Below, piece after piece: positions 3,301 through 55,935 of a stretch of 64,000 bases of DNA. The position numbers were made by a program, and so were the translations under genes. Where the stretch lies: positions 1,312-65,311 of the forward strand of contig JAEDGZ010000007.1 of the NCBI GenBank assembly GCA_016297215.1, given 5' to 3'. The notes under the pieces are model-generated. The model saw only the letters and a program-made list of their open reading frames with translations, was not told the DNA's origin and searched no databases. This stretch comes from Paludibacteraceae bacterium. Its GTDB lineage: Bacteria > Bacteroidota > Bacteroidia > Bacteroidales > Paludibacteraceae. Numbering within the stretch: the stretch's first letter is position 1; each line of letters begins with the position of its first letter.

Positions 3301-4291
3301 GTTGCTCGGGCTGAACAGCAAGGGCGAGAGCGTGCTGGAGACCCTGATGCGCTACGGCACCCTCTTCCAGCAAGATAAGCAGTTGCAGCAGAACTCGCTC
3401 TTCGGCGACATGGGCGACATGGGCGTGGCGGTGCAGCACCCCGAGATACCGCAGTCTCCGCGCTGGTCGGCTATCGAGCGGCTGAACATCGAGAAATCGC
3501 TCATTGGCATCTTCCTCTCCGCCCACCCGCTGGATGAGTACGAATACGAGGTGCGCGAGATGTGCGACATCACCGCCGCCGAACTGACCCTCTTCGACGG
3601 CTGGCGCACGCCCGAAGCCCGCGCCGCTGCCGCCAAGAATAGCGAAACCTCTGATAACTCCGAAGATTCCGAGAACTCCGATAACTCCGATTTCTCCGAT
3701 GACTCCGAAGAGAAACCCCGTATCACCCCCGAGGCCTTCCTCGCGAAGTACAAGAACAAAACGCTGCACTTCGGCGGTATCGTAACGAGCGCAGAGGTGG
3801 CGACTTCGAAGAAAGGGAATATCTACGGGCGCTATGTGGTGGAAGACTACACGGGTAGTTACCGGATGACCCTCTTCGGGGAGAACTACAAACGACTCTC
3901 GCCGATGTTGCAACCCAATGTGTATGTGTATATCACGGGCACCATCGCCCAGCGCGGTGCGGGCATGCGCTGGTTCAAAGAGCAGGCGGACGAACAGGCG
4001 GAGTTTGAACTGAATATCACCAACGTAGAGTTGCTCAATGAGGTGCAAGACCTCTATGGCAAGGGGCTGACGCTCCGTATCTCGCTGCCGAACTTGGACA
4101 ACGAGCTGATAGAGGAACTGAACGACCAATGCAAAGCCCACCCGGGCAAAGGGCAACTCCACATCCAGATAGCCGACCCCATACACAACTACCTCATCCA
4201 CATGACCTCCAAAAGCCGCTACATCCGCATCACCACCGACTTCTACCGCTGGCTCCAGATGCAAGAAAAGATACAAATAGTGAACGAATAA
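341..4291 (+). CDS. dnaE: DNA polymerase III alpha subunit
   Basis: 1316-aa ORF with an N-terminal PHP domain (MNFTHLHVHSHYSMLDG). Pol III alpha core motifs are present (GPGRGSAAGSVVAYCLHITDLDP, LPDIDTDF, NKSHAACYS), followed by a C-terminal OB fold. Confidence 0.97.
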   Translation: MNFTHLHVHSHYSMLDGMSKVPEIVEKCLRCGMNAVALTDHGNMYGIKELLDYCKKVNGRLKEAAGDGAFVPFKPIAGCECYCARRGRHSMTDEKAMNGEGREYIIDRSGWHLILLAKNKVGYHNLCHIVSESFMDDAYNYTARIDRELLEKYHEGLICSSACLGGELPQKIMAGDMAGAEETIEWFKGVFGEDYYIEIQRHQTDKPRADQVVYQRQKEVNPILIDLAKKHGVKVIATNDAHFVNEENGEAHDRLICLSTNHYVDEEDRMHYTKQEWVKTPEEMEAIFGDIPEALTNTQEIVDKVEIYDIDSGPIMPNFPIPEEFGTEESYREKFTPEDLFNEFTRNEHGEVVLSQEEAEKKVKKLGGYDKLYRIKLEADYLAYLAYKGAHERYGEELTEEQKERILFELHIMKTMGFPGYFLIVMDFIRAAREELGVSVGPGRGSAAGSVVAYCLHITDLDPLKYDLLFERFLNPDRISLPDIDTDFDDVGRPKVIDWVTERYGKTHVAHIVTYGKMATKSAIADVGRVQRLPLAKVAELKSYIPDRNFPDNIKDEKGKSPKVNLKNCYKYVDELKHEFEMGEPNVREVLEYAKQLEDTNRQVGIHACGIIIGADDLTKFAPLSSVYDPKLKKRVLVTQYDGHVVESVGLIKMDFLGLITLNIIKECIKNVKKRTGEVVDIDHIPIDDALTYKLFQEGQTTGVFQFESAGMRKYMKELQPTVIGDIIAMNALYRPGPMDYIPQFIRRKQGLEPVTYDIPVMEKYLKDTYGVTVYQEQVMLLSRLLANFTRGESDKLRKAMGKKQMAILQELKGKFMAGGKANGHDEKVLEKIWSDWEKFASYAFNKSHAACYSWVAYQTAYLKAHYPAEFLAANLTVSKDNIKEVTKFMDECKEMRIQVLEPDVNESEMNFTVNDQGNIRFGLGGIKGVGEGAVEAIISEREKNGKFKDIFDFLERVNLQACNRKTVENLALAGAFDCFDGLYREQLLGLNSKGESVLETLMRYGTLFQQDKQLQQNSLFGDMGDMGVAVQHPEIPQSPRWSAIERLNIEKSLIGIFLSAHPLDEYEYEVREMCDITAAELTLFDGWRTPEARAAAAKNSETSDNSEDSENSDNSDFSDDSEEKPRITPEAFLAKYKNKTLHFGGIVTSAEVATSKKGNIYGRYVVEDYTGSYRMTLFGENYKRLSPMLQPNVYVYITGTIAQRGAGMRWFKEQADEQAEFELNITNVELLNEVQDLYGKGLTLRISLPNLDNELIEELNDQCKAHPGKGQLHIQIADPIHNYLIHMTSKSRYIRITTDFYRWLQMQEKIQIVNE
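3653..3712 (+). repeat. 9-nt tandem array (GAnnAnTCC x6) in frame inside dnaE
   Basis: The DNA reads gataactcc gaagattcc gagaactcc gataactcc gatttctcc gatgactcc and encodes DNSEDSENSDNSDFSDDS. The unit is one mismatch from the reverse complement of the intergenic array cggagtaat at 49402-49426. Confidence 0.9.
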
Positions 4292-4304: not shown

Positions 4305-4779
4305 CTTGAAACATATAATTGTGCGGCTTACTCTAACATATAATTATCGTGTAATTATTCATGTAATTAACATGAGTTCGATATAAGATTTTTAGTCTTG
4401 ATTTTCTTTTGATTTCTGAGCGTAGCGAAACAAATAGACAATCGCTCATCCTATTTTAGAAAGGATTTTTAGTAAGATTATGGACTATATTTTCTGATGT
4501 GTTTCCTTAAAATCACTGCAAAAAATAACGCAAAAATCTTTACTGATAATAGTAGTGAGTGATAATTTTATGCCCTTTCGCTTCGCTCAGAAATCCATAT
4601 AAAATCAAATAGAAAATCTTTTGGTAAAATATATCTTATACGTCGTATCTTATTTCGAACTCACGTTAACTATAAATCACAATGAAAAAATTAATGAATA
4701 ATTACACGGCAATTACATGTTAAAAAAGCAAATGATAGTTATATGTTAAGAAGTATAACACGATAGTTATATGTTCAAG
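4305..4779. repeat. Long AT-rich imperfect palindrome (foldback element) between dnaE and folC
   Basis: The left arm 4305-4387 (cttgaaacatataattgtgcgg..aacatataattatcgtgtaattattcatgtaattaacatgagttcgatataag) pairs with the right arm 4649-4779. Nested inner arms also pair: 4383-4428 (aagatttttagtcttgattttcttttgatttctgagcgtagcgaaa) with ~4576-4620, and atcgctcatcctatt with aatagtagtgagtgat. Confidence 0.85.
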
Positions 4780-4805: not shown

Positions 4806-6500
4806 ATGTCTTACGAACAAACCCTCCAATACCTCTACGCCTCACAGCCGGCGTTTCATATAGTGGGCAGTAGCGCCTACAAGCCCGGGCTGGAGAACAC
4901 GCGCCGTCTGATGGCGCACCTCGGCAACCCGCATGAGCGGTTTGCCTCTGTTCATATCGCCGGCACCAACGGCAAAGGCAGCACGTCCCACCTCATCGCC
5001 GCGAGCCTGCAATGTGCGGGATACCGCGTCGGGCTCTACACCAGTCCGCACCTTGTGGACTACCGCGAGCGTATCCGTATCAACGGCGCGATGATTCCCA
5101 AGGAGGAGGTGGTGCGCTTTGTGGAGGATAACCGCGCGTTCCTCGAGGAGGTCAAACCCTCTTTCTTCGAGACCACGATGGCGCTCGCGTTCTGGTATTT
5201 CGCCCAAGAGCAAGTGGACATCGCCGTGGTGGAATGCGGTTTGGGCGGCAGGCTCGACTCCACGAACATCATCACGCCCATCCTGTCGGTCATCACGAAC
5301 ATCGGCTTCGACCACACGGAGTTCTTGGGCGACACGCTGGCGAAGATAGCCTACGAGAAGTCGGGTATCATCAAGCCCGGCGTGCCTTGCGTCATCGGCG
5401 AGACCGACCCCGAGACCATGCCCGTCTTCCTCGCCAAAGCCAAGGAATGCGGTATCTTGGGCGAGGGTTTGGAGACCACCGACTGCCGTATCTGGTTTGC
5501 CGACCAATGCGGCTACCTGCGCCGCAAGCGCCAACGCGACATCCCCGACTGCCAACTCCACGGCATCTACCAAGAGAAGAACATCCAAACCGCCTACGTA
5601 GCCCTTAGCGCATTGCAACAGACCCTCTCTAACTCCCCCTTAAGAGCACCCCAAAAATCAAAGATTTTTCGGGGACCCCGCAAGGGGGAGAACCTAACTG
5701 GGGACGCCCCGACCGTGTCGCGGGCGGTAATAAACACGGAGCGAAGCGGAGTTCTTAACACGAAGTTCCCAACACGAAGTTCCCAACACAAAGTTCTTAA
5801 CACGAAGTCCATTGCCCTCGCTTTCTCCCAAGTCTGCACGCTGACGGGTCTTCGCGGGCGTTGGGAGACGGTGCGCGAGCACCCGCTCACCATCTGCGAC
5901 ACGGGGCACAACGCGCATGGTATCAAGTACGTGGCGGAGCAGTTGGAGCAGATGATGCCGCACTACCGCAATACGCGTATCATCTTCGGCATGGTGGCGG
6001 ATAAGGACATCAGCGAGGTGGTGAAACTCCTCCCCGCCAATGCCATCTACTACTTCACCCAACCCAACAACCACCGCGCCTTCCCCGCCGAGAAACTGAA
6101 GAGGATGTTTGAGGATGAAGGATTAAGGACACAGGATAAAAGACAAAATAGTATATCGGATGAAAGATTAAGGATAAAGGATGAAAGACTAAATAGTTCT
6201 GCAAACGAACTCCCCCGCCCCGCTTGCGGGGAGGGGGCAGGGGGCGGGGCAACCTCCGAGACGCAGGTAACTAATTTATCCCCCTCCCTTTTCGGGGTCC
6301 CCACAAGCAACGCGCAGTGGGGTGGCTTCAGGGAGGGACGGGGTGGGTCTTCTTTCCCCACCATAGACGAAGCCCTCGCCGCCGCCTTCGCGGAAGCCTC
6401 GCCCGACGACCTTATCTTCATCGGCGGCAGCAACTACGTAGTAGGTGCCGCCCTCCAATCTCCCTACCTCACTGCCCCGCTGACCTCACCGAAAGAGTAG
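4806..6500 (+). CDS. folC: Folylpolyglutamate synthase / dihydrofolate synthase, carrying two large repeat-derived inserts
   Basis: 564-aa ORF with the Mur-ligase P-loop HIAGTNGKGSTSH, VVECGLGGRLDSTN and NIGFDHTEFLG, plus C-domain GLRGRWE..DTGHNAHG and a terminal LIFIGGSNYVVG. It is roughly 120-140 aa longer than my expectation for FolC because of the inserts at about 5625-5825 and 6111-6360. Confidence 0.9.
   Translation: MSYEQTLQYLYASQPAFHIVGSSAYKPGLENTRRLMAHLGNPHERFASVHIAGTNGKGSTSHLIAASLQCAGYRVGLYTSPHLVDYRERIRINGAMIPKEEVVRFVEDNRAFLEEVKPSFFETTMALAFWYFAQEQVDIAVVECGLGGRLDSTNIITPILSVITNIGFDHTEFLGDTLAKIAYEKSGIIKPGVPCVIGETDPETMPVFLAKAKECGILGEGLETTDCRIWFADQCGYLRRKRQRDIPDCQLHGIYQEKNIQTAYVALSALQQTLSNSPLRAPQKSKIFRGPRKGENLTGDAPTVSRAVINTERSGVLNTKFPTRSSQHKVLNTKSIALAFSQVCTLTGLRGRWETVREHPLTICDTGHNAHGIKYVAEQLEQMMPHYRNTRIIFGMVADKDISEVVKLLPANAIYYFTQPNNHRAFPAEKLKRMFEDEGLRTQDKRQNSISDERLRIKDERLNSSANELPRPACGEGAGGGATSETQVTNLSPSLFGVPTSNAQWGGFREGRGGSSFPTIDEALAAAFAEASPDDLIFIGGSNYVVGAALQSPYLTAPLTSPKE
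5631..5690 (+). repeat. ~60-nt GC-hairpin element, copy 1 (inside folC)
   Basis: The sequence aactcccccttaagagcaccccaaaaatcaaagatttttcggggaccccgcaagggggag is near-identical to 47941-48003. The outer stem is ctccccct/agggggag and the centre is the palindrome cggggaccccg. Confidence 0.9.
5750..5810 (+). repeat. Alternating heptamer array (agttcyy aacacra) x4, inside folC
   Basis: The array reads agttctt aacacga agttccc aacacga agttccc aacacaa agttctt aacacga agtcc. The 14-nt period is not a multiple of 3, yet the folC frame stays open. Confidence 0.9.
6111..6193 (+). repeat. GGATRAA heptamer-type array inside folC
   Basis: The array reads gaggatgaaggattaaggacacaggataaaagac...ggatgaaagattaaggataaaggatgaaagac. 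The same word family occurs in intergenic leaders at 36892-36925 and 58890-58934. Confidence 0.85.
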
Positions 6501-6777
6501 TCCAAAAAACAACTTAAAAACAGTATGATTATTAAGATTATCTCTCAACACTAAACACTCTACTCTCAACGAGAAATCACCAACGAACTACCTAAGAACT
6601 ACCAAGGAACTACCCACCAACTCCCCACCACCAAAAATATACGATTATTAAGATTTACTAGGGCACGCGGGCATCTCCTCCGCGGTAAAGTGTCTGGGTA
6701 CGCAGGTTCTGTCCGGGTACGCCCCAGTTTATCCCGACAAGTCGGGAACCCGTCGGGGCTAAATAATCCTAAAAACC

Positions 6778-6855
6778 ACTATAACAGCTATACCAACTAT
6801 AACCTCTATAACAACTATAATAACTATAGAGCCTATAGCAACTATACCAACTACC
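6778..6855. repeat. 9-nt tandem array (actataaca-like x9) in the folC-downstream non-coding region
   Basis: The units are actataaca gctatacca actataacc tctataaca actataata actatagag cctatagca actatacca. They lie within a 6.5-7.05 kb stretch made almost entirely of low-complexity arrays; further examples are at 6543-6633 and the 11-mers at 6917-6949. Confidence 0.85.
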
Positions 6856-7088
6856 ATTCCAACAAACACCTTCCCCCACCATAGTAGGAAGGCGAAACTA
6901 AACCAGACAAAGAAAAGAGCAGACAAGGAGCAGACAAAGAGCAGAGAAGAAGCCGAGACCCACCCCCTCTCCGTCAGTAATTCCCCACCACGCCTCATCA
7001 AACAGAAACAAAGCACCCCCAAAACCTGTTTTTCAACCCAAAATGTCATTTTCTCGTCCTATAATTTGCACATATCGGGAAAAAGCAG

Positions 7089-7730: not shown

Positions 7731-10178
7731 ATGAAAACGAAAATTATTCTTTTGCTTGCGTCCATCAGCATCGTTAACAATGTTTTAGCTTTTGAATTCA
7801 AATTAGATGGTCTAATATATAGAGCTCTTTCTAATACGCAAACGTATGTTACAGTTTACGGAGACACAAAATGCTCTGTTATAACTATCCCAGAAACAGT
7901 TACATATAATGGAAGAGAATACAATGTTACTGCAATCGGAGCTGGTGCATTCAAAGATTTCTCTTCCCTTACATCCATCACTATTCCAAAAACTATAAAA
8001 TCAATCGGAGATGGTGCATTCAATGGTTGTACTAACCTCACTAAAACCAATTTTACAGGCGATATAGCAGATTGGTGTACCATACATTTTACGCCTTCCT
8101 ATGCGGCAAGCGAACACAAATCTAATCCTATCTACTACTCGCATAACCTTTACATCAACGATGTTGAAATAACAGATTTGGTAATTCCTGACTCAGTAAT
8201 ATGCATTGAAGAATGCGCCTTCTGCAAATGCAGTTCTCTCACTTCCGTTTTTATTTCCAACTCAGTAACGCGCATCGGAAGCCAGGCATTTAGAGATTGC
8301 TCATCGCTTTCCCATATTACCATTGGTAGTTCTGTGAAAAGCATTGAAGGTAACGCTTTTTTGGGCTGTACGGCCCTCACTAAAACCAATTATATAGGTG
8401 ACATAGCAAACTGGTGTGCCATACAATTTGGCTTGAGAGATTCTAATCCTATCTACTATTCACAAAATCTGTATATTAAAGATGTAGAGGTTAATGTTCT
8501 AATAATTCCTTCACCTGCAACATGCATTAAACAGTATGCTTTTGTAAATTGTTTATCTCTCTCCTCCGTCAACATTGCAAACTCTGTAATGACCATTGAA
8601 CGTTATGCGTTCGAAGGTTGCTCTTCTATCACCTCTGCTACAATTCCAAATTCCGTAATCAGTATTGGGGACGAAGCGTTTTACAATGTTCCGAATATCA
8701 TTTATAGTGGAACAGCCACTGGAACGCCATGGGGAGCTAGAAGTGTAAATGGATATGTTGAGAAGTATTTCGTATATGAAAGCGAAGCTAAAACCCAATT
8801 ATTGGCATGTAGTTCTGCAGCAAAAGGAAACATAACTATTGCCAACTCCGTAACAAACATTGGAAAATATGCATTCAATGATTGTGCATCAATCACTTCC
8901 ATCACTATTCCCAATTCTGTAATAAACATAGACGACTACGCATTTACAAACTGCCCGGGGCTCACATCCATCACCTTGCCAAACTCCGTAACAAACATTG
9001 GAGGTTGTATATTTGAGAACTGCTTAAATTTGAGTTCTGTAATAATCGGAGGTGATTCTATGATGAATATTAGTCCTTATGCTTTCGATTATTGCAAAGC
9101 CATAACATCCATTACATGGGATATCAAAAACCATAAAGGAGGATGGACTACAGGAGGTACTGTGTATGATAAAAATTATAAAGATTTTTCTCCTTTCTAT
9201 AAGATACGTGATCAAATTACTTCTTTTGTCTTTGGAAACAATGTAGAAGATATTCCTGCATGTCTTTGTTGCGGTTTAGATAGCCTTACTTCTGTTACAA
9301 TTTCTAACTCTGTAAAAAATATCGGATATGATGCTTTTTATGACTGTCGGAGTTTAACTTCTATTACACTGCCTAATTCCATAAAATATATTGGAACGGG
9401 AGCATTTGAGCACTGCGTAGAACTGAACTCCATTAACATCCCAAATTCGGTAACAGGGATAGCAAATTATGCTTTTAGTAGTTGTTATTCTCTCACATCT
9501 ATCAACATTGGTAACTCTGTAACATGGATTGGAGATTACGCTTTTGATGGTTGTTCTTCTCTTTCCGATGTCACCATCGGTGAGTCTATTAAAGTCATTG
9601 GATCATTTGCTTTTGCCGGTTGTTTTGCAATTACCAAAACTAATTACACCGGCGACATAGCAGATTGGTGTATGATACAATTTTCAAATAACATTAGTAA
9701 TCCTATCTATTATTCACATAATTTGTATATTAAAGATGTAGAAATAAATGATTTAGAAATTCCCAACTCTGTTAAGAAGATTGGTGAATATGCATTCTAT
9801 AATTGTTATAGCCTTAGAACTATAACCATCCCACATTCTGTAACAAGAATTATGAGTTCTGCTTTCTATTCGTGCAAAGCAATATCAGATGTATATTGCA
9901 AAGCAATGACCCCTCCTGAATGTGCTCCCTATTGTTTCGACTACATTCCTACAGACTGCAAACTTCATGTCCCTTTGGGAACTAAAACTGCTTACCAAAC
10001 TAAATATGGTTGGAAACAATTCTATCATATCTTTGAAGAAGACTTTACTAATTTGTTGCCTGAGACGCATGTATCTTCACCCTTCAGCACCACCATTCGA
10101 AAAGTACTCTACAATGGACAAATATTTATACAAAAAGGAAATAACAAGACTTACACTGTAACGGGAATAGAATTATAA
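7731..10178 (+). CDS. BspA-like leucine-rich-repeat surface protein, probable T9SS cargo
   Basis: 815 aa with signal peptide MKTKIILLLASISIVNNVLA. It has many LRR_5-type units (SLTSITIPNSVTxIGxxAFxxC). Three near-identical blocks NYTGDIADWCxIQF..SNPIYYSHNLYIxDVEI are present, and the C-terminal tail is KVLYNGQIFIQKGNNKTYTVTGIEL. Confidence 0.85.
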   Translation: MKTKIILLLASISIVNNVLAFEFKLDGLIYRALSNTQTYVTVYGDTKCSVITIPETVTYNGREYNVTAIGAGAFKDFSSLTSITIPKTIKSIGDGAFNGCTNLTKTNFTGDIADWCTIHFTPSYAASEHKSNPIYYSHNLYINDVEITDLVIPDSVICIEECAFCKCSSLTSVFISNSVTRIGSQAFRDCSSLSHITIGSSVKSIEGNAFLGCTALTKTNYIGDIANWCAIQFGLRDSNPIYYSQNLYIKDVEVNVLIIPSPATCIKQYAFVNCLSLSSVNIANSVMTIERYAFEGCSSITSATIPNSVISIGDEAFYNVPNIIYSGTATGTPWGARSVNGYVEKYFVYESEAKTQLLACSSAAKGNITIANSVTNIGKYAFNDCASITSITIPNSVINIDDYAFTNCPGLTSITLPNSVTNIGGCIFENCLNLSSVIIGGDSMMNISPYAFDYCKAITSITWDIKNHKGGWTTGGTVYDKNYKDFSPFYKIRDQITSFVFGNNVEDIPACLCCGLDSLTSVTISNSVKNIGYDAFYDCRSLTSITLPNSIKYIGTGAFEHCVELNSINIPNSVTGIANYAFSSCYSLTSINIGNSVTWIGDYAFDGCSSLSDVTIGESIKVIGSFAFAGCFAITKTNYTGDIADWCMIQFSNNISNPIYYSHNLYIKDVEINDLEIPNSVKKIGEYAFYNCYSLRTITIPHSVTRIMSSAFYSCKAISDVYCKAMTPPECAPYCFDYIPTDCKLHVPLGTKTAYQTKYGWKQFYHIFEEDFTNLLPETHVSSPFSTTIRKVLYNGQIFIQKGNNKTYTVTGIEL

Positions 10179-11277: not shown

Positions 11278-11313
11278 AATTTACGATTTACGATTTACAA
11301 TTTACGATTTAGC
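11278..11313. repeat. Heptamer array (tttacga x4-5) immediately upstream of sanA
   Basis: The sequence aatttacgatttacgatttacaatttacgatttagc ends directly at the sanA ATG. Confidence 0.9.
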
Positions 11314-18456: not shown

Positions 18457-18508
18457 AAATGAGTGTTTGTATTAGAAAAGGTTATTACTTCATGTCTGTG
18501 AACGTTAT

Positions 18509-18790
18509 AACTACTCTTTCCCTCTGGAACATATAATTATCGTGTAATTATTCGTACAATTTTGCAACGAAAAATTAATGGTTAATTACATGATAATTAT
18601 ATGTTAAAAGAACTACTCTTTCCCTCTGGAACATATAATTATCGTGTAATTATTCGTATAATTTTGCAACGAAAAATTAATGGTTAATTATACGATAATT
18701 ATATGTTAAAAGATAATGGCAATTAACGGAGAAAACTCAACGAAAAATTAATGGTTAATTACACGATAATTATATGTTAAAAGATAACAG
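18509..18790. repeat. Tandem array of AT-rich hairpin elements (2 full 102-bp units plus a partial third)
   Basis: Unit 18509-18610 is aactactctttccctctggaacatataattatcgtgtaattattcgtacaattttgcaacgaaaaattaatggttaattacatgataattatatgttaaaag. It is repeated at 18611-18712, and a third right arm lies at 18740-18782. Each unit folds (aacatataattatcgtgtaatta / taattacatgataattatatgtt). Confidence 0.9.
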
Positions 18791-18806
18791 CAATTAACGG
18801 AGAACG

Positions 18807-20866: not shown

Positions 20867-20901
20867 AAAAAATGTGTTGAACTGCCGGTACAGTTCAACA
20901 C
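20867..20901 (-). terminator. Rho-independent terminator (minus strand), member of a duplicated terminator module
   Basis: The stem gtgttgaactg / cagttcaacac is followed on the minus strand by tttttt. A near-identical ~45-nt module lies at 25499-25540. Confidence 0.8.
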
Positions 20902-20932
20902 ATATCGTGTACAAACCCTATCGTATGTACTT

Positions 20933-25259: not shown

Positions 25260-25581
25260 GTGAACTCGAAATAAGATTTATACACAAAAATAAACAATAA
25301 TACTTGACAAAAACGAACAAAAACTCTTTTACTCAACAAATATTTTCAAATATTGTTCAAATAGGTTTTCTATAACATATAATTGTCATATAATTAATCA
25401 TCAATTCATTACCAAAAATCAAATTAGTCTTTGACTGCTGAAGTAACTCGCTTATATCGAGCTCACGTAATGTAGTACAACTTGTATATCATTACCATAA
25501 AAAATGTGTTGAACTGTCGGTGCAGTTCAACACATATCGTGTCAAGCATTCTTGAAACATGTAATTGTCGTTGCATTAATC
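25260..25581. repeat. Mosaic copy of the AT-rich foldback element family
   Basis: Segment 25260-25279 (gtgaactcgaaataagattt) is inverted relative to 25451-25467 (cttatatcgagctcacg). Segment 25374-25401 is aacatataattgtcatataattaatcat. Segment 25551-25581 (cttgaaacatgtaattgtcgttgcattaatc) matches the start of the 4305 element. Confidence 0.75.
25499..25533 (-). terminator. Rho-independent terminator of ddh (duplicate of the 20867 module)
   Basis: The stem gtgttgaactg / cagttcaacac is followed on the minus strand by tttttt. Confidence 0.8.
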
Positions 25582-26769: not shown

Positions 26770-29700
26770 TTATTTAACGATAACTGTTTGTGCGGCATCC
26801 GAGGTTATTACAACGTAAACCCCTTGCAGCGAGCCATTTAGGCGCGTTACGTCGCGGCCGAGCAGGTCGTAGATGCGGAACTCGCCGTCGCACACGATGC
26901 GACCATTAGCTGCATATATTTGCGATGCCGTTACCGCTTCCATCGCAGTGGGGGTATTATTAAGTCGTGTAATCGTCAAGTCGTAACTTCCGGGAGCATA
27001 ATTTACTGCCACATAATAGGTAGTTGCAGCCTCTAAATCGTAGGTCGGCGAAGTTGTAATGTCCGTGTAGTCGCTCTCGGTCTTGGTTGTATTGACATAC
27101 AGATTGCCCGCTGTCAGTTGCGTGCTGCTGAATTGATACGAACCGGTTTCGGTGGGCGTAAACTCATACCATGTAATAGGATTATTTGATGCGGTAATCG
27201 TTTGAGTACCTACTGCCAGTATGCCATACGTATTGGTATAAACCGCATCTCTATAATATACCGGCAATCCGCCAAGGACAGGGTAAAGGTCTGTGCCGAT
27301 GTTCTGCCCCCAGATTGAACCGTCATAAGTGGTATTGCTATATATATAGCCCTGTGAAAGGAGGTAAGCCACCTCGCCGCTCTTGAACTGCTCTGTGGTT
27401 TTGCCGAGGACATTATCTGAAACAGCGTTTTCATTGACAATAGTATCAACAGCACTTCCATTATAAACAGTGTTATCATAATAGCAATTTGCTATTAAAT
27501 AGCCATTGGCTCCGCATATACCGCCGGCATGAGATTCACCGTTGACTTTGCCGGCATTATAGCTGTTGGCAATTAACGCACCGTTAGATGCACAAACACC
27601 GCCTACAAAAGAATTACCGCTGACAGAACCTCTATTATAGCAATTGATAATAAACGCACCGTTAGATGCACAAACACCGCTGACGTAAGATGCACCGTTG
27701 ACTGTACCTGTGTTATAGCAGTTTGTGATTGAACCTTCGACATTACTTCCGCACACACCACTGACAAACATATTTCCATTAAGATAGGAATCGACAATGC
27801 CGACATTCTTTATTTTACCATTGTTCGAGCCGAACAAACCGACAAAATCTGTATTATTTTCATTGAAATACAATCCACTTACGATGTGATTCTGTCCGTC
27901 GAATGTACCTGAATATCTATTTGAACTATTACCGACAGGCGTCCAGTTTCTGAAGTTTTCACCATTTGCTACTTCTCCTGTTTCATTGTCAAATTGGAGT
28001 GAAGTAAGAAGATTGCTGTTTACGGTAATATTCTTTGTAAGCTCTGCGTTTATTCCAGAATTTCCGCTATTAACCTGCTGTGCAAACCAATAAAGATTGC
28101 CTGCGTTGGCGATTTCGTAAATACCGCTTGTGGTCTTTTGTTCTGCAGGCTGATAGCCGTTGCACTTGGTGCAGAAGCCGTTTTCGTTATAGTCGTGCTC
28201 GGCATAAACGGTTTCGGCGTACGTGTTGGCATAGGTGTAAGTCGGTTCGCCGGGATTACCGACACAACCGGGATATGTTGCATTGCAATACACGGTGCCT
28301 CGATTCGTCAGCACGGGGTGTTTGTCTCCTGTTTCAGGCGTAAGGTCTTGATACCATGCCTGCGTGCCGTCGGTTACGCTGTCGTTCAGCAGATAGCAGA
28401 CCTCGCCGCTCTCCACCTGTGCCTGTGTTACCTGTGTCATGCCGGAGGTCACAGTGGTACCTATTTTGTTGACGAAATAACATCCTGTTGTCGAAACAGT
28501 ACCGCCTTTGCGGCTGACAATGTCGCAGTCGGTATCTTGAATGTCGAACGTGGCACTGATGTATGAGCCGCTTACATTGGTTGTGGTTCTGGTGTAGCCG
28601 ACAAATCCGCCGCAGCAGCTTGTGTTCTTTCCTTTTATGGCACCTGTAAATCCACAGTCTTGGATGTACATCGTTCCGGCTTCACATGTTCCGAGGATGC
28701 CACCGTGTGTGCCGTCGCCCACTACGGAAGAGTTGATGGTAACATCCGATATACATTTCTTTATGTATGCGGAGCCTGTACCGTACTTGCATGCGGCAAT
28801 ACCACTTGTAAAGGACAAGTCGGTATTTATGACACCTTTCACTGTGAGATTCTCGATGGTGCATGAGCCAATATATCCGAACGGCGTTGCGTTTTCGCTA
28901 CCACTTTGGTTGACTGTCAGGGTGTGTCCCTGTCCGTCAAATGTGCCTTCAAAGAGATTGGTTGTAGAATGTCCTCCGATAGAGATGAATTGGTGGCTAC
29001 CGAAGTCCACGTCTTTTGTCAGCACAGCCTTGGCTTGTCTGTTCTGCGTTATGCCGGCTTGAGTGCCATTGACAAGTCCAGCGAACCAGTTGTACTGTCC
29101 GGCATTGCTGATTTCGTAAACACCATTGGTTTCGTTATAATGTGCTGCCTCAAAACATCCACGGCTGCAGAACCCATTTTCATCCATGTCGTGCGTTTCG
29201 TGCACCACATCAGTGACAGCAGTATTGGAACAAACTTTTCCCACGATGACGCCTGCACATATAATGTTGGCTCCATATACGGTGTTTCCTTCCGCAGCCT
29301 TGAGCACAGGATATTTGTCGCCTGTTTCCTGTGTGAGGTTCTGATACCACGTCTGCGTGCCGTCTGTCTTGCCATTATTGAGCAGATAGCACACCTCGCC
29401 GTTGGCAAACTGAGCATCTGTCATCTTGGTGATGCCATCGAGGTAATTGCCGAGGTTGTTGAGGTAGTAGCAGTTTGTTACCGTTACCGTTCCACCCATT
29501 CGGCTTACAATGTTGCAGCCTGCAGACGAAATGCCGAAGGTGGCGGACACATAGGAGTTGCTGATAATTGACGTTTTGTTTGTATATCCAATGAAGCCAC
29601 CGCACTTGTTGGTCGTGCTACCATTGATGGCTCCCGTGAAGGCGCAGTTGTTGATATTCAGCGTTCCATTATCCACCACGCCAATGATGCCGCCATGTGT

Positions 29701-32394
29701 GCCGTCGCCGTCTATGGAAGAGTTGATGATAACATCCGATATACATTTCTGGATGTGCGCAGTGCCTGTCCCGTATTTGTGCATGGCAAAGCCAGCCGCA
29801 TACTTCTCTGAGGTGTTGATGGTACCCGTCACGGTCAGGTTCTTGATAGTGCATGAGCCGATGTTTCCGAACAATGCCACTTCTTTGGAACCGGTCTGGT
29901 TCACCTTGATGGTATGTCCATTGCCATCGAATGTGCCGGCATAGAGTATGGATGAACTCTTACCGATAGCCGTAAAGTTGGTGGTGCCGAAGTCAATATC
30001 GTTCACGAGTTTGGCGCTGGCAGCCATGTTTTGTTTTGTGCCATCGGTTAGTGTGCCGTTTACAAGCCCAGCAAACCACAAAAGGTTGCCTACGTTGCCG
30101 ATTTCGTAAACAGCGTCCCCATCACTATCTGTTGCCGGTTGATAGCCGTTGCACTTTGTGCAGAAACCGTTTTCGTTATAGTCATGCTCAGCATAAACCG
30201 TTTTATCTGTATTTGAGTAACCCGTTTTCGATTCGCCCGGATTGTCTTTACAGCCTGCATAAACAGTAATCAGGTAAACCTTTTCGCCGCCAAGGACAGG
30301 GTAATCTTGCTTGCCTGTACTGGAAAGGGTCTGTCCCCAGACTGAGCCGTCATAGGTTACAGCACTTTCACCCTCACCAACTATGCAGCCCTGCGAAAGG
30401 AGGTAAGCCACCTCGCCGCTCTTGAACTGTTCTGAAGTTTTGCCGAGGACATTTGAAGAAACAGTGCTATTATTACTGCCAACAGCATTTCCGCTATAAA
30501 CTGTACTGTCAAAATAGCAGTTTGTGATTGTACCGGAGTTGCTATATCCGCACACGCCGCCGACAGAACTACTACCGCTTACCGCACCTGTATTGTAACA
30601 GTTACTTATGGCACCGGAGTTGCTAAATCCGCACACGCCGCCGACATAACGACTACCACTTACCGCACCTGTATTGTAACAATTACTTATGGTAACGTGG
30701 ACGCCATATCCGCACACGCCACCGACATTTTCTTTACCTTTGAAATAAGAATCAACAACGCCCGCATTGGAAATTTTGCCGTTTTCACCTACATATCCGA
30801 AGAGACCGACATAATTTGTTTGTGAATCATTAAAATACAAACCTCTGACCGTATGGTTTTGCCCGTCAAATATTCCTTGGTAATAACCAGATCTGTTTCC
30901 GATAGGCGTCCAGCTTCTGAAACTGCTTACATCGCTTGCAAGCGTACCATCCGCATTCAAAACGCCGGTGTTTACGGTGATATCAGCAGTAAGCACTGCT
31001 TTTGCGGTACGGTTTTGTGCTGTACCGTCAATCAGTATGCCGTTTACAAGGGCGGCAAACCAATAAAGTTGTCCGGCGTTACCGATTTCGTAAACTTCAT
31101 CTTTTGTTCCGTCACCATTGATGTCATATTTATCGGTTGTCAGTATTGCGGGCTGATAACCACCGCACTTTGTGCAGAAGCCGTGCTCGTCGAAGCTGTG
31201 TTCAATACTTACTGCCCCTGTGTTGGAGAATTGGCTCATACAAGGTATGCCGGCATACACTGTGTTGCTGCCATTTGACTTCAAGACAGGAGATTTGTCG
31301 CCTGTTTCCGGCGTAAGGTCCTGATACCAAGCCTGTGTGCCGTCGGTCTTGCCTTTGTTCAGCAGATAGCAGACCTCGCCGCTCTTGAACTGCTCTGAAG
31401 TTTTGCCGAGGACATTTTCAGAAACAGTGCCATCTTCATTATAGCCTACAGCATTTCCGCTATAAATAGTGCTGTCATAATAGCAGTTTGAAATTTTGGT
31501 GCTTCTGTTGTATCCGCACACGCCGCCGACATATTTATTATTACCGCTTACTGCACCTATATTGTAACAGTTACTTATGGCTGCGACGTAGCAAGATCCA
31601 CACACGCCGCCGACATAATTACTACCGCTTACCGCACCTGTATTGTAACAGTTACCTATGGTACCGTATTCGTTATATCCACACACACCGCCGACATAAT
31701 TTCCATTAGTGCTTACCGCACCTGTATTGTAACAGTTACTTATGGCACCGTAGGCGCTAAATCCGCACACGCCGCCGACATAATATCCATTACCGCTTAC
31801 CGCACCTGTATTGTAACAGTTACTTATGGCACTGTAGGCGCTAAATCCGCACACGCCGCCGACATGTTGATTTCCATTGAAATAAGAATCAACAACGCCC
31901 ACATTGGAAATTTTGCCGTTTTTACCTACATATCCGAAGAGACCGACATAGTTTGTTTTTGAATCATTAAAATACAAGCCGCTGACGGTATGGTTTTGCC
32001 CGTCAAATGTTCCTGTGTAAACACCAGATGTGTTTCCGATAGGCGTCCAGCTTCTGAAATTGCTTACATCGCTTGCAAGCGTACCATCCGCATTCAAAAC
32101 GCCGGTGTTTACGGAGATATCAGCAGTAAGCACTGCTTTTGCGGTAGTTTTTTGTGCTGTGCCGTCGGTTAGTGTGCCGTTTACAAGGGCGGCAAACCAA
32201 TAAAGCTGTCCTGCGTTGCCGATTTCGTAAACAGCGTCACCATCACTATCTGTTGCAGGTTGATAGGAGCCATCACTGCCGAAACCGTTGGTGTAAGTTA
32301 CCTCTTGTGCCCATGCCGTAGAGGGTAACACCATTGCCGCCACGAGCAGAAGCATCGCAGCGAGCCACCTTAGTTTTTTAGTTTTCATTGTCAT
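26770..32394 (-). CDS. Giant GLUG-motif repeat protein (adhesin-like), T9SS cargo
   Basis: About 1874 aa from MTMKTKKLRWLAAMLLLVAAMVLPSTAWA; the start is 32394 or 32388. It has many GLFG..ISNCYNTGAVSG..YVGGVCG units, repeated GFCTKC(G/N)GYQPA modules and a C-terminal tail FRIYDLLGRDVTRLNGSLQGVYVVI. Confidence 0.85.
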   Translation of the reverse strand: MTMKTKKLRWLAAMLLLVAAMVLPSTAWAQEVTYTNGFGSDGSYQPATDSDGDAVYEIGNAGQLYWFAALVNGTLTDGTAQKTTAKAVLTADISVNTGVLNADGTLASDVSNFRSWTPIGNTSGVYTGTFDGQNHTVSGLYFNDSKTNYVGLFGYVGKNGKISNVGVVDSYFNGNQHVGGVCGFSAYSAISNCYNTGAVSGNGYYVGGVCGFSAYGAISNCYNTGAVSTNGNYVGGVCGYNEYGTIGNCYNTGAVSGSNYVGGVCGSCYVAAISNCYNIGAVSGNNKYVGGVCGYNRSTKISNCYYDSTIYSGNAVGYNEDGTVSENVLGKTSEQFKSGEVCYLLNKGKTDGTQAWYQDLTPETGDKSPVLKSNGSNTVYAGIPCMSQFSNTGAVSIEHSFDEHGFCTKCGGYQPAILTTDKYDINGDGTKDEVYEIGNAGQLYWFAALVNGILIDGTAQNRTAKAVLTADITVNTGVLNADGTLASDVSSFRSWTPIGNRSGYYQGIFDGQNHTVRGLYFNDSQTNYVGLFGYVGENGKISNAGVVDSYFKGKENVGGVCGYGVHVTISNCYNTGAVSGSRYVGGVCGFSNSGAISNCYNTGAVSGSSSVGGVCGYSNSGTITNCYFDSTVYSGNAVGSNNSTVSSNVLGKTSEQFKSGEVAYLLSQGCIVGEGESAVTYDGSVWGQTLSSTGKQDYPVLGGEKVYLITVYAGCKDNPGESKTGYSNTDKTVYAEHDYNENGFCTKCNGYQPATDSDGDAVYEIGNVGNLLWFAGLVNGTLTDGTKQNMAASAKLVNDIDFGTTNFTAIGKSSSILYAGTFDGNGHTIKVNQTGSKEVALFGNIGSCTIKNLTVTGTINTSEKYAAGFAMHKYGTGTAHIQKCISDVIINSSIDGDGTHGGIIGVVDNGTLNINNCAFTGAINGSTTNKCGGFIGYTNKTSIISNSYVSATFGISSAGCNIVSRMGGTVTVTNCYYLNNLGNYLDGITKMTDAQFANGEVCYLLNNGKTDGTQTWYQNLTQETGDKYPVLKAAEGNTVYGANIICAGVIVGKVCSNTAVTDVVHETHDMDENGFCSRGCFEAAHYNETNGVYEISNAGQYNWFAGLVNGTQAGITQNRQAKAVLTKDVDFGSHQFISIGGHSTTNLFEGTFDGQGHTLTVNQSGSENATPFGYIGSCTIENLTVKGVINTDLSFTSGIAACKYGTGSAYIKKCISDVTINSSVVGDGTHGGILGTCEAGTMYIQDCGFTGAIKGKNTSCCGGFVGYTRTTTNVSGSYISATFDIQDTDCDIVSRKGGTVSTTGCYFVNKIGTTVTSGMTQVTQAQVESGEVCYLLNDSVTDGTQAWYQDLTPETGDKHPVLTNRGTVYCNATYPGCVGNPGEPTYTYANTYAETVYAEHDYNENGFCTKCNGYQPAEQKTTSGIYEIANAGNLYWFAQQVNSGNSGINAELTKNITVNSNLLTSLQFDNETGEVANGENFRNWTPVGNSSNRYSGTFDGQNHIVSGLYFNENNTDFVGLFGSNNGKIKNVGIVDSYLNGNMFVSGVCGSNVEGSITNCYNTGTVNGASYVSGVCASNGAFIINCYNRGSVSGNSFVGGVCASNGALIANSYNAGKVNGESHAGGICGANGYLIANCYYDNTVYNGSAVDTIVNENAVSDNVLGKTTEQFKSGEVAYLLSQGYIYSNTTYDGSIWGQNIGTDLYPVLGGLPVYYRDAVYTNTYGILAVGTQTITASNNPITWYEFTPTETGSYQFSSTQLTAGNLYVNTTKTESDYTDITTSPTYDLEAATTYYVAVNYAPGSYDLTITRLNNTPTAMEAVTASQIYAANGRIVCDGEFRIYDLLGRDVTRLNGSLQGVYVVITSDAAQTVIVK

Positions 32395-32435: not shown

Positions 32436-32777
32436 CAATTTTTCTTTCAAATATGCAAAAAATATACAAGTTTTTTTTTTCAACATTTTTGGGGCATTTA
32501 TATAGGACTTGACTCCAAACACTTACGGGGCGACATAACTAAATGATGTTAATTTATCACCTTTGCGGCTGTTGCCGAGCGTACCATCCCGCCCCCTGTC
32601 CTCGATGTCCACCGGACATCGCTTCACCCCTCCTTTCAGGAGAGGCGGGGGAGTTTGGCTGCGCACACCGAACTCTCAACTCTCAAAACTGAACCCTCAA
32701 CTATGGGGAGGGGTAAAAGAGCTTGACACTCTTTTTTGCAGCGGAGGTTTTCTTCATTTTGTTCGATATAGGCAGCT

Positions 32778-32835
32778 AAATCACCTACTAATCACCTACT
32801 AATCTCCTACTAATCACCTACTAATCTCCTACGAT
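32778..32835. repeat. 11-nt tandem array (aatcacctact x5)
   Basis: The units are aatcacctact aatcacctact aatctcctact aatcacctact aatctcctacg. They are related to aatcactaact x5 at 40071-40124. Confidence 0.9.
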
Positions 32836-32883
32836 TATCTGCTCAACGGAAAGGAGGTGTATTTATCACCTTGGTCATAAGAG

Positions 32884-32929
32884 CCACACAGAGGGTGTGT
32901 CATGCTATTTTGACACACCCTCTGTGTGG
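32884..32929. repeat. Perfect 19-bp stem hairpin
   Basis: The hairpin is ccacacagagggtgtgtca-tgctattt-tgacacaccctctgtgtgg. Neither side has a flanking T-run. Confidence 0.9.
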
Positions 32930-32962
32930 TTGTACACACCGGACACTCAACACTCAACTATA

Positions 32963-33127
32963 GCAGGCGGGGACGCCTGCGCATCCGGACAGGTATCAGC
33001 AGGCAGACAGAATATGGTGCGGCATGGAGACCGCACCTCCTTGGAAGCCCCGACTGGTCGGGACGTACCCGGACATTTCTACCGCGGGCGAGACGCCCGC
33101 GTCCCCAGGGGACGCCTGCGCACCCGG
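32963..33127 (+). repeat. Cluster of GC-rich REP-like hairpins
   Basis: The cluster contains gcaggcggggacgcctgcgcatccggac (32963-32990) and ggtgcggcatggagaccgcacctccttgg (33016-33044). It also contains ccccgactggtcgggac and gcgggcgagacgcccgcgtccccaggggacgcctgcgcacccgg (33084-33127). Confidence 0.9.
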
Positions 33128-40045: not shown

Positions 40046-40124
40046 ATTTTTCTTTGTTATCTGATATAGGAATCACTAACTAATCACTAACTAATCACTA
40101 ACTAATCGCTAACTAATCACTAAC
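40016..40124. repeat. Two adjacent microsatellite arrays at the susD/DUF4960 junction
   Basis: Array ttgacaat ttgacaat ttacaat ttctcat (40016-40043) encodes the first residues MRNCKLSNCQ. Array aatcactaact x5 lies at 40071-40124. Confidence 0.9.
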
Positions 40125-40147
40125 TTTTGACGGCTTATAGTCGCGTG

Positions 40148-46333: not shown

Positions 46334-48034
46334 TTACTTCCCTCTTGTGGCGGGGGTAGTGCCGAAGAACTCGCGGTAGCACTTCGAGAAATAAGACGGA
46401 GAGGTGAAACCCACGGAATAAGCGACCTGCTGGATAGTCAGGTCGGTATTGAGCAACATCTGCTTTGCCTTACGCAAACGAATATGGCGTATTAACTCCA
46501 CGGGAGAGACTCCCATCAAGGATTTGGTTTTTCGGAAGAGTTGTGCGCGGCTCATGCTCAACTCGTCGCTCAGCGCTTCTACATTGAACTCGGAATCATC
46601 CAAGTGGCGCTCTATCGTATTCTGCAGTTGCTCCACGAAGCGTTCGTCCACCGACTGTTCGGATTTCGTGCGCTCCAGCGCCGCGGTCATGTCCTCCAAC
46701 TGCTTTTGTTGCTGCGCCACTATGCGCGCACTCTCTTCCCGCTCGCGCTGCACACGCAACGAGTACTGATAGACCCGAAAGAGCACCACCGCCAAGACCA
46801 CGAGCAGCAGCAAGAAAGAGACTAACAAGATTAGGGCAATACGCTGGGCGCGTGCTGTATCCCACAAGCGTTTGAAACGACTTTCCAATTCATTGGAGAC
46901 TGCCACCTGTCGGTCTATCTCCTCGGCAATCTGCTGCAAGGGGAGTGCCGCATCGCGGTCTATCAACAGCGTCGGCAGACGCACGATACGCTCATAGGGT
47001 TCGCCATGCAGTATCTTCACCGCCGTCTGTATCACCAAATCGCCGCGACTGGGATAGGTAGCAGTCATGTCTATCTCGCCTTTGAGCAACGCCTCCACGC
47101 CACCGCCCTTGCCGACGATGCCGTCCACGCCCATTATTTTGGGGGCATCTAAATCTCCCTTAAAGGGAGACTTAGAGGTGGCGGCATCGGTTTGCTTACT
47201 GTTAGAGGCTAAAATATTCCCCCTTCCCATGCGGTTTTTGCAGGCTTCGTAAGCACCTATTGCCATCGGGTCGTTCTGCGCTATAATGGCGTCTATTTGC
47301 GGGTAGAGAGATAATAACGAGTCGGTCACCACTCTGGCATTCTCGCGGAACCATGCTCCGCAGGCAGCCCCCACTATCTGCACCTCGGGGTGTTCTTGCA
47401 GGCTGTCCATCATGCCTTTGTGCCGCCACACCATCGGCGTGGAGCCGGGCAAGCCTTGTATTTCCAAGACGCGCAAGGGACGTCCTTCGGGTACGATAGA
47501 GAGCAACCACTGCGCCATGAGTTGCCCCACTGCGTAGTTGTCCCCACCGATGAAAGCCGTCCATTTCTCGCCCGATACCTGCCTGTCCGCCACTATCACG
47601 GGAATCCCCGCGTCGTAGGCGCGGCTCACGGCAGGCTTCACCTCTTCCGCCTCATTGGGAGATACAATGAGCAAATCGACTCGCTCTGCTATGAAAGAGT
47701 CGATTTGCTGACACTGAATCTCACTGTTGTCGCTCGCCTGACGAATATGCAGGGTTAAGTCGGGATGGAATATCAGTTCCTGCTCCATCTCCTTGTGCAT
47801 ACGCATACGCCACGCGTCATCCGAACATTGGCTCACGCCAATGATATACTGCGGAGACGGCTTCGGCGCAGAGCACCCCATCAGGCATGCTACGAGGCAG
47901 GCACAAAGAAGACCCACCCCTGCCCTACATGACCCCCTCCAACTCCCCCTACGAGAGCACCAAAAAAAACAGAGATTTTTCGGGGACCCCGCAAGGGGGA
48001 GAGAAAAATATACTCGTTTAGCGGTTGAGAGCAT
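46334..48034 (-). CDS. Membrane-anchored periplasmic sugar-binding / AraC-HTH one-component regulator (start uncertain: 48034 or 48100)
   Basis: A type I periplasmic binding domain (IGVSQCSDDAW..LIVSPNE..VIVADR..IIAQNDPMA) is followed by one TM helix (IALILLVSFLLLLVVLAVVLF). About 45 aa of coiled coil and an AraC HTH (..QVAYSVGFTSPSYFSKCYREFFG) complete it. No HisKA, HATPase or receiver motifs are present. Confidence 0.8.
   Translation of the reverse strand: MLSTAKRVYFSLPLAGSPKNLCFFWCSRRGSWRGSCRAGVGLLCACLVACLMGCSAPKPSPQYIIGVSQCSDDAWRMRMHKEMEQELIFHPDLTLHIRQASDNSEIQCQQIDSFIAERVDLLIVSPNEAEEVKPAVSRAYDAGIPVIVADRQVSGEKWTAFIGGDNYAVGQLMAQWLLSIVPEGRPLRVLEIQGLPGSTPMVWRHKGMMDSLQEHPEVQIVGAACGAWFRENARVVTDSLLSLYPQIDAIIAQNDPMAIGAYEACKNRMGRGNILASNSKQTDAATSKSPFKGDLDAPKIMGVDGIVGKGGGVEALLKGEIDMTATYPSRGDLVIQTAVKILHGEPYERIVRLPTLLIDRDAALPLQQIAEEIDRQVAVSNELESRFKRLWDTARAQRIALILLVSFLLLLVVLAVVLFRVYQYSLRVQREREESARIVAQQQKQLEDMTAALERTKSEQSVDERFVEQLQNTIERHLDDSEFNVEALSDELSMSRAQLFRKTKSLMGVSPVELIRHIRLRKAKQMLLNTDLTIQQVAYSVGFTSPSYFSKCYREFFGTTPATRGK
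47941..48003 (+). repeat. ~60-nt GC-hairpin element, copy 2
   Basis: The sequence aactccccctacgagagcaccaaaaaaaacagagatttttcggggaccccgcaagggggagag has the same orientation as copy 1 at 5631-5690. Confidence 0.9.
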
Positions 48035-48058
48035 TTGAAACTTGAAACTTTTTACAAA

Positions 48059-48085
48059 GCGGGCGAGACGCCCGCGCACCCGGAC
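48059..48085 (+). repeat. REP-like hairpin
   Basis: The sequence is gcgggcgagacgcccgcgcacccggac. Confidence 0.9.
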
Positions 48086-48099
48086 AAAAGACCTTACCA

Positions 48100-51680: not shown

Positions 51681-51762
51681 ATTGAGTTTAGTGTGGAGAG
51701 TTTAGAGTTGAGCGATGATTAAACTCTTAACACTCAACTCTCAATACTCAACTCTCAACTCA
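51681..51762. repeat. Inverted pair of heptamer arrays (gagttga / tctcaac type)
   Basis: Segment 51681-51714 (attgagtttagtgtggagagtttagagttgagcg) is roughly the reverse complement of 51722-51762 (aactcttaacactcaactctcaatactcaactctcaactc). Confidence 0.8.
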
Positions 51763-52524: not shown

Positions 52525-52537
52525 TGAATTATGAATT

Positions 52538-55278: not shown

Positions 55279-55359
55279 AAACATATAATTATCGTTAATT
55301 ATTCATATAATTTACACACCGATGCTCCTCAATAACTGCAATTATGGCAAATTACATGT
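55279..55359. repeat. AT-rich hairpin element (ACATATAATTATCG family) downstream of rlmH
   Basis: The sequence aacatataattatcgttaattattcat ... aataactgcaattatggcaaattacatgt forms imperfect inverted arms. Confidence 0.75.
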
Positions 55360-55851: not shown

Positions 55852-55935
55852 TTTAATTATGAATTAAGAATTATGAATTATGAGGGCGTATGCTCTATAA
55901 ATAATTGAAATTCTAATTCAAAAATTACGTATAGA

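Follow-up and report, generated by a model that had tools for sequence, protein, structure and literature searches.

The folC gene of an uncultured gut Bacteroidales bacterium, which encodes folylpolyglutamate/dihydrofolate synthase (FolC), contains two in-frame inserts built of repeats of a kind that also lies between genes. My preferred explanation, to which I give a probability of about three in four, is a colonisation of two FolC surface loops by repeats from the intergenic DNA of the same genome; these would be tolerated and translated, and filtered for reading frame and stop codons. The gene lies in a 64,000-nt stretch of DNA from a Paludibacteraceae bacterium (GCA_016297215.1, contig JAEDGZ010000007.1, positions 1,312-65,311 of the forward strand), hereafter the window, whose own coordinates are used throughout. 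A preliminary description of this DNA had claimed one repeat block within folC; that block, at 5620-5825, is confirmed, but a second in-frame block at ~6110-6360 had been missed.

FolC and its two inserts

The folC coding sequence (4806-6500, plus strand) is an intact open reading frame (ORF) of 564 amino acids (aa), and its product is unambiguously FolC. It scores 342.1 bits against TIGR01499 (cutoff 162.65), with the match split in two stretches, and Pfam places Mur_ligase_M (PF08245) at residues 51-193 and Mur_ligase_C (PF02875) at 351-439. A Foldseek search with the FolC model returns FPGS/FolC structures as the best matches (1o5z, 1w78 and 2gca, E ~1e-20), and when the protein is aligned with solved FPGS/FolC chains (402-487 aa) the N-terminal part runs unbroken and the remainder aligns only beyond a gap. 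Together the two inserts make up ~135 residues, ~24% of FolC.

Insert 1, at site 1 (5620-5825, plus strand), adds ~54 residues (aa ~277-330) to a loop of the N-terminal domain, the one that joins its final two helices. The three-element repeat composite previously described inside folC is present with all three elements in place. The first, module A (5633-5690, plus strand), folds as a two-tier hairpin whose outer stem (CTCCCCCTT at 5633-5641, AAGGGGGAG at 5682-5690) encloses an inner stem (CCCCAAAAATC/GATTTTTCGGGG). The claim that a ~60-nt GC hairpin recurs near 47941-48003 holds for this module: its part at 5643-5691 aligns over 49 nt with 47954-48002, at 92% identity. The full 70-nt string of the first element has no second copy in the window at three or fewer mismatches (chance expectation 0).

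The second element (5698-5729, minus strand) is a repetitive extragenic palindrome (REP) of the CGTC-tagged type in reverse orientation, as seen in an alignment with the eight other REP copies of the window. The earlier label of a degenerate reverse-oriented REP is a fair one: the invariant family ends, ACCGC and GCGTCCCC, are kept and reversed, the stem arms are altered, and 3 nt are extra between the ends. This copy encodes TGDAPTVSRAV, and a canonical REP at site 2 of one relative (L170) translates as TGDAGVSPAV. The third element (5757-5808, plus strand) is a tandem array of 3.7 copies of AACACGAAGTTCCC (Tandem Repeats Finder, TRF: score 83, 89% matches). Of the earlier wording, a heptamer array with a 14-nt period, the period stands but the heptamers do not, as the 14-nt unit is not two like heptamers. 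One peptide predicted across a core-insert junction is GENLTGDAPTVSR.

Insert 2, at site 2 (6110-6360, plus strand), adds ~80 residues (aa ~437-517) in a loop of the C-terminal domain, a segment that is absent or far shorter in normal FolC. It comprises a heptamer array of ~10 AGGATAA-like copies (6112-6187, plus strand; TRF) that encodes EDEGLRTQDKRQNSISDERLRIKDERLNS; a G-rich hairpin, CTCCCCCGCCCCGCTTGCGGGGAGGGGGCAGGGGGCGGGG (6210-6249, plus strand), which shows inverted similarity to 32627-32662 and is a module also present in an intergenic spacer of another relative (L087); and a palindromic module, CCCCCTCCC...GGGAGGGACGGGGTGGGTC (6280-6355, plus strand, with the folded palindrome at 6280-6349). 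Positions 6316-6355 are the reverse complement of 47905-47944 (40 nt, 78% complementary). An intergenic composite at 47905-48003 (plus strand), between the genes for an MFS transporter and a periplasmic-binding protein (PBP)/AraC regulator, joins a copy of module A to the inverse of the 3' module of site 2.

Both inserts are modelled as disordered loops at fold-compatible sites. In an AlphaFold2 model built from the alignment, the FolC core is confident and residues 280-327 and 448-515 have a predicted local distance difference test score (pLDDT) below 50 and no secondary structure, which agrees with the expectation that the first insert maps to a loop. The model puts site 1 between helices 256-276 and 333-341 of the N-terminal domain and site 2 between helices 428-448 and 520-530 of the C-terminal domain. 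Insert 1 had been assigned to the linker between the domains; it is near the linker, but in a loop ~25 residues ahead of the first strand of the C-terminal domain (353-357). The insert peptides are 25% hydrophobic, versus 41% in the core.

Conservation of the reading frame and of the core

For comparison at the DNA level I used the window and ten relatives (L081-L088, L170 and L171), 11 loci whose contigs derive from differing samples and assemblers. At both sites the coding frame is free of stops in 11 of 11 loci, and the other two sense frames hold 2-15 stops, the exception being the 75-nt insert-free site 1 of L088, where those frames have none either. The frame had been said to stay open across the first insert of the window, and it does so with 0 stops against 4 and 3 in the other sense frames; for insert 2 the figures are 0 against 7 and 8. 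Insert lengths are multiples of three throughout. Shuffles that preserve composition leave insert 1 stop-free in 7.8% of trials, insert 2 in 2.6% and the other inserts in 0.03-30%. The mirrored antisense frame is also frequently open, which is to be expected of palindromes. A frameshift or stop might have come to light on resequencing; independent assemblies keep the folC frame open.

The core of folC has a ratio of nonsynonymous to synonymous substitution rates (dN/dS) of 0.04-0.12 and no indels, and its three segments have the same lengths in nine loci (783, 267 and 84 nt). These values indicate that folC is under strong purifying selection. Within the inserts there are no Rfam family matches at the gathering threshold, on which ground an RNA gene or ribozyme was rejected, and there are no terminator-like sites on the coding strand.

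Lineage specificity and turnover

The close relatives retrieved by protein search number 24 and are 486-590 aa long, some of them labelled as Paludibacteraceae metagenome-assembled genomes (MAGs); the search also gave many homologues of normal length (426-448 aa). Prevotella had been suggested among the relatives to align, but the named ones carry Paludibacteraceae or Bacteroidales MAG labels instead. The dnaE-folC gene order is kept in all ten relatives compared as DNA. Among the long FolC proteins the core is near-invariant, and variation in both length and sequence is confined to sites 1 and 2 and the C-terminal tail. Site 1 has 24 distinct sequences in the 24 long proteins, with 47-114 aa from anchor to anchor versus 19-21 aa in normal FolC; site 2 has 23 distinct sequences in 24, with 59-150 aa versus 33-43 aa. 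None of the 24 clade relatives has lost both inserts.

Scans with the N-domain gave, among the matches listed, a closest identity of 81% in genome contigs and 74% in metagenome contigs. The nearest GTDB species representatives among the matches listed (N-domain at most 81% identical) have a FolC of 414-456 aa without large inserts, with nothing longer at site 2 than a short run of tandem repeats, such as the YPIPD repeats of L002. The inserts are lineage-specific, as had been proposed: they are absent from these representatives and, by alignment, both are absent from the homologues of 426-448 aa. The small repeat-like addition at site 2 of L002 (JAZREU010000099.1) reads YPIPDIQYPIPDTQSPIS, and site 2 of L005 has ISIQQSVFSNQP; the C-domain loop of FolC may be a recurrent soft spot across the family.

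Turnover between strains is directly visible. In their core nucleotide sequence L081, L082, L087 and the window are 96% identical, yet L082 and L087 have site-1 sequences that bear no relation to the window's. In the more distant L088 (Logan SRR33454291; 84% N-domain identity, synonymous divergence dS ~1.3) the site-1 insert is absent and a heptamer-array palindrome occupies site 2. Because L088 has the site-2 insert alone, colonisation of site 2 would be older than, or independent of, that of site 1.

Shared modules, intergenic copies and traces of rearrangement

Across the 11 loci the inserts draw on a small repertoire of palindromic modules, combined as mosaics. The repertoire includes a short hairpin, CTCCCCCTTAAAGGGGGAG, and a long form whose loop encloses another hairpin; REPs of two types; the palindrome TTATCCCGACAAGTCGGGA, which has an intergenic copy at 6727-6747 of the window; and array-armed palindromes of the form (AGGATRA)n ... 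(TYATCCT)n, along with 14-nt arrays. L081, L083 and L085 have the short form of module A, in which the inner hairpin is absent. The window and L081 show hairpins nested to three levels, and in L081 the third level is a palindrome, CCCGACAAGTCGGG, that replaces the centre of the inner hairpin. Many complete inserts fold end-to-end into one long hairpin. The predicted structures of complete inserts are very stable, for example -113 kcal/mol over 189 nt in L083.

When the insert DNA of all genomes is compared with DNA outside folC, every match is intergenic save one, a hairpin at 47148-47173 described below. Site 1 of L082 and of L086 contains ~180 nt that match the dnaE-folC spacers of L081, L083 and L086 at 94-97% identity, over alignments of 118-180 nt. 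Window positions 6148-6262, which span heptamer array and G-hairpin, match the L087 dnaE-folC spacer at 90% identity over 115 nt; this spacer holds a complete array-hairpin-inverted-array palindrome. Further modules match intergenic DNA of the window at ~32590-33040, 63098-63124 and 47954-48002. The H1-REP composite occupies site 1 of the window and of L081, whereas in L081 and L082 it is also seen at site 2; the modules are thus copied from one place to another.

Several steps of change can be read directly: the three-deep nesting, a 40-nt in-frame flip and an inverted copy of the host flank. The flip is seen in L170, in which the 40 nt inside the outer stems of module A (window 5642-5681) are exactly reverse-complemented; there is one further difference from the window in the 216-nt segment, the frame stays open, and SPLRAPQKSKIFRGPRKGE becomes SPLRGPRKIFDFWGALKGE. 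The inverted copy is seen in L087, where site 1 starts with AGCGCATTG-TCC-CAATGCGCT, the left arm consisting of conserved core codons (S-A-L) and the right arm of their reverse complement. This inverted duplication of the host flank suggests fold-back or template-switch copying for the L087 allele at least. Direct duplications at the insert junctions were not obvious, although no systematic analysis of them was made.

Some further observations concern the same modules. The dnaE-folC spacer of the window contains, at 4398-4608, a unit resembling a transposable element of the miniature inverted-repeat type (MITE), with 33-nt inverted termini that are 88% complementary and 145 nt apart; the spacer of L170 is the same, and other sister genomes hold heptamer-array palindromes or the ~180-nt element there. 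Three called proteins from ENA contigs (P0123, P0125 and P0126) are tandem copies of the inner hairpin in successive frames, TPQKSKIFRGPRKNTPKIKDFSGTPKEHPKNQRFFGDP, from which it follows that the inner hairpin of module A also forms arrays elsewhere and yields spurious database ORFs. A strict hairpin scan (perfect 9-bp stem, loop of 3-14 nt) does not pick up the folC hairpins. A peptide search with module translations in four frames gave 6 weak matches and failed its control, an exact 39-aa match in P0001 that it did not recover.

Explanation and alternatives

The colonisation proposed at the outset would begin with short GC-rich hairpins, a CGTC-tagged REP and palindromes with 7- or 14-nt array arms, copied in from intergenic copies, those of the spacer directly upstream of folC included. 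New hairpins would then insert into the loops of older ones, hairpin interiors would flip between inverted-repeat stems, arrays would grow and shrink, and entire blocks would be replaced. The strong purifying selection on folC would remove any version that loses the frame or gains a stop, and the product would have long hydrophilic disordered loops borne by the two-domain Mur-ligase fold. The copying may proceed by transposition or by template switching or gene conversion, and the repeats themselves are most probably passengers, either selfish or neutral, rather than modules that serve the protein.

Several points weigh against this explanation. The loci were retrieved through called proteins, so that intact ORFs are over-represented among them, and I infer translation of the inserts from the conservation of the frame. 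Module A has just one other high-identity copy in the 64-kb window. Moreover, the inverted duplication of the host flank in L087 would fit fold-back or template-switch copying better than classical transposition. Finally, short-read assemblies can mis-join at these repeats. On contig L169 (k141_837352, 1000-1300) the folC N-terminal domain runs into a site-1 element and then, in frame, into an unrelated gene, a join that arose either in assembly, as a chimera caused by the repeat, or by true rearrangement; it implies that another copy of the ~180-nt element lies beside or inside the unrelated gene. The protein of this contig, P0128, is the one short protein among the matches listed in the N-domain protein search (a search that was not exhaustive, with P0001-P0024 unlisted). 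It was considered as a frameshifted truncated allele and rejected as such, being the site-1 element joined to the unrelated gene.

It is very unlikely that folC is a decaying pseudogene or that its inserts are artefacts of repeat-induced mis-joins. L169 shows that a site-1 element can appear joined to an unrelated gene, and another protein, P0026, loses the FolC C-terminus past site 2. However, the core dN/dS of 0.04-0.12 argues against pseudogene status, as does the absence of core indels, and artefacts would have to account for both sites being occupied (the insert-free site 1 of L088 aside) in 11 contigs from varied samples and assemblers, with full-length ORFs, dnaE-folC synteny and inserts continuous with the core at both ends. 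It is this recurrence across independent assemblies, together with dN/dS, that disfavours both forms of the idea. I give hardly any credence to the inserts being left untranslated, whether removed as an intron or intein or skipped by programmed translational bypassing. The inserts are strongly structured, and hairpin-rich mobile inserts that the ribosome bypasses do occur in coding regions of yeast mitochondria. Removal or bypassing predicts that frame and stops are free to vary, yet the coding frame alone is stop-free at both sites in the 11 loci and the lengths are always multiples of three, a constraint that speaks against it. Rfam gave no intron or ribozyme matches, and for an intein the inserts are far too short and too variable.

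That the inserts have been co-opted is more worth considering, though still improbable. They might act at the RNA level, by slowing ribosomes for co-translational folding or by tuning mRNA decay, or, once translated, serve as flexible tethers or as loops for interactions. The position of several cases at or near domain boundaries (FolC site 1, an APH/RapZ-C linker and the DnaE linker ahead of the OB fold) would suit such roles, as would the very stable folding of complete inserts such as that of L083, and the finding that 0 of 24 clade relatives have lost both inserts. But linkers and loops are the places where insertions are tolerated anyway, and FolC site 2 is away from a domain boundary. 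Furthermore, insert content is unrelated among near-identical strains, so no specific insert sequence or peptide is conserved, and REP stems decay with compensatory change absent (GCGGGC in the window versus GCCCGC in L081).

Going beyond colonisation by tolerated passengers, I tentatively raise the possibility, which I hold to be somewhat less than even, that the lineage carries an undescribed, modular, self-nesting palindromic-repeat system that routinely colonises loops and linkers of essential proteins and is rewritten within species by insertion into hairpin loops, inversion between stems and fold-back copying of flanks. If this were true, fast-evolving de novo peptide would account for as much as one quarter of a housekeeping enzyme. 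The lineage would then allow the emergence of protein sequence from non-coding DNA to be followed in nature, and hairpins might be the targets of a copying process that needs no classical transposase.

Relation to known repeat systems

Most known examples of in-frame palindromic repeats come from Rickettsia and a small number of REP-rich genomes, where they tend to be lone insertions that are fairly stable. The preliminary description likened the folC repeats to Rickettsia palindromic elements (RPEs), and the comparison is borne out: palindromic and tandem repeats of intergenic type lie in frame within an otherwise normal folC, with both intergenic and genic copies and at loop sites. It had further held that such behaviour was not known to be described for Bacteroidales. 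Literature searches on Bacteroidales, Prevotella or folC indeed found no account of in-frame palindromic repeats, but CGTC-tagged REPs have been reported in Bacteroidetes (PMC3733652). Thus, the behaviour matches that of RPEs and intragenic REPs, which are already known, and is new for the present lineage. What is distinctive here is the multi-module composite, with its arrays whose periods are not divisible by 3, the nesting, the exact in-situ inversion, and the way in which two fixed loops of an essential enzyme are hypervariable from strain to strain.

RPEs are dispersed palindromes that lie between genes and in frame in unrelated, often essential genes, to which they add a fold-compatible peptide (PMC10969869). 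The palindromic repeats described here are likewise both intergenic and in frame in unrelated genes, and the folC inserts sit at surface loops that are fold-compatible in the predicted model. The likeness is one of analogy, as the host is a Bacteroidales MAG, from another phylum, and the sequences are unrelated. An RPE is one element of ~100-150 bp, whereas the inserts here are mosaics of short module types and arrays with periods not divisible by 3. RPE insertions are largely fixed within species, whereas here two fixed loops are re-colonised and rewritten between near-identical strains.

GTAG- and CGTC-tagged REPs are mostly intergenic; intragenic copies, established in several phyla and single, dimeric or clustered, encode 20-82 residues and frequently strike replication and repair genes (Di Nocera et al. 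2013, PMC3733652). The published CGTC REP is a palindrome of 20-40 bp with a stem of 8-9 bp, a loop of 4-5 nt and complementary A-T residues at the first two stem positions; it has CGTC at its end and, beyond that, a short tail that is unpaired (PMC3733652). The REP of the window is a similar short GC-rich CGTC-tagged hairpin, mostly intergenic and also found within genes: in this 64-kb sample 7 of the 9 copies are intergenic and 2 are in frame, in folC and in an APH/RapZ-C ORF. Its consensus is ACCGCRGGCGAGACGCCYGCGTCCCCAG, and the CGTC-type end GCGTCCCC occurs in 9 of 9 aligned copies, with a tail of CCC(A) versus CCA in the published consensus. The stem, CGCAGGCG-AGA-CGCCTGCG, allows two pairings, one of 8 bp around a 3-nt loop and one of 7 bp around a 5-nt loop, and it starts with CG/GC in all copies, not with the A-T of the published CGTC families. 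The window REP is CGTC-tagged and stands outside assignment to the four published CGTC families. It differs from the described intragenic REPs in being one of several insert module types, and the nesting, exact in-situ inversion and strain-level hypervariability are not known to be among the features described in PMC3733652.

In-frame MITEs (QMITE1 of Coxiella, intragenic ERIC and those of Anabaena) are non-autonomous elements with inverted termini that can form in-frame fusions with host ORFs (PMC10969869; PMC5896051). The heptamer-array palindromes of ~115-180 nt resemble them in their inverted arms and in having copies in the spacer, at site 1 and at site 2. Their termini, in contrast, are tandem arrays and not unique inverted repeats, and the L087 allele opens with an inverted copy of the host flank.

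These loci offer a tractable case for following how non-coding repeats become protein sequence, how far a Mur ligase tolerates disordered insertion, and how repeats move. In practical terms, they break short-read assemblies, as in L169, inflate and fragment protein clusters, and could act as strain markers.

Repeats in other genes and intergenic regions of the window

Counting folC, 4 of the ~45 genes in the window have in-frame repeats. ORF 52538-53995 includes a canonical REP, CCGCAGGCGAGACGCCTGCGTCCCCAG (53560-53586, plus strand), which is translated in frame as DRRRDACVPS within the segment that links its APH kinase and RapZ-C domains. An alignment of homologues places it in a variable APH/RapZ-C linker; the idea that it is a relic of a recent gene fusion was rejected, since the fusion is widespread among homologues and the linker variable. 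The hairpin module AAGTCTCCCTTTAAGGGAGATTTAGA (47148-47173, minus strand) is in frame as SKSPFKGDLD inside the PBP/AraC regulator ORF 46334-48100, and matches folC insert modules exactly over 25-26 nt in L083 and L086 and over 17 nt in L085. In dnaE a 9-nt array, SDNSEDSENSDNSDFSDDSE (3649-3708, plus strand; TRF), lies in frame between the HHH and OB-fold domains assigned by Pfam; it varies among sister genomes, and L085 has a REP ('AGVSPA') there.

The window also has further intergenic repeats. An AT-rich family (AACATATAATTATCGTGTAATTATTC... and its inverse) occurs at 4334-4368, 4686-4779, 18506-18805, 25373-25407 and 55280-55313. Copies lie at each end of the dnaE-folC spacer, and at 18509-18804 the family is arranged in tandem, with units of 102 and 71 nt. 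It may have a regulatory role or be one more small mobile element. Arrays of short period (7, 9, 11 and 14 nt) lie at 6579-6953, 11279-11311, 32671-32839, 40071-40125 and 51722-51761, and further ones at 52519-52541, 55855-55883, 58070-58098 and 63566-63587. Like units recur at distant loci, with AATCACCTACT-like units at 32779 and 40071 and AATTAAG/AATTATG at no fewer than four sites, and such recurrent short-period intergenic arrays are an unusual genome-wide feature. Two near-identical 32-nt palindromes (ATGTGTTGAACTGCCGGTACAGTTCAACACAT; 20872-20903 and 25504-25535) sit just downstream of two minus-strand genes and may be terminators or binding sites. Finally, two ORFs are repeat-rich and of surface type: ORF 26770-32394 (minus strand, 1874 aa) has internal repeats of ~1 kb and ~81-84 nt, and ORF 7731-10178 (plus strand, 815 aa) has 69-nt-phased repeats of the leucine-rich-repeat type.

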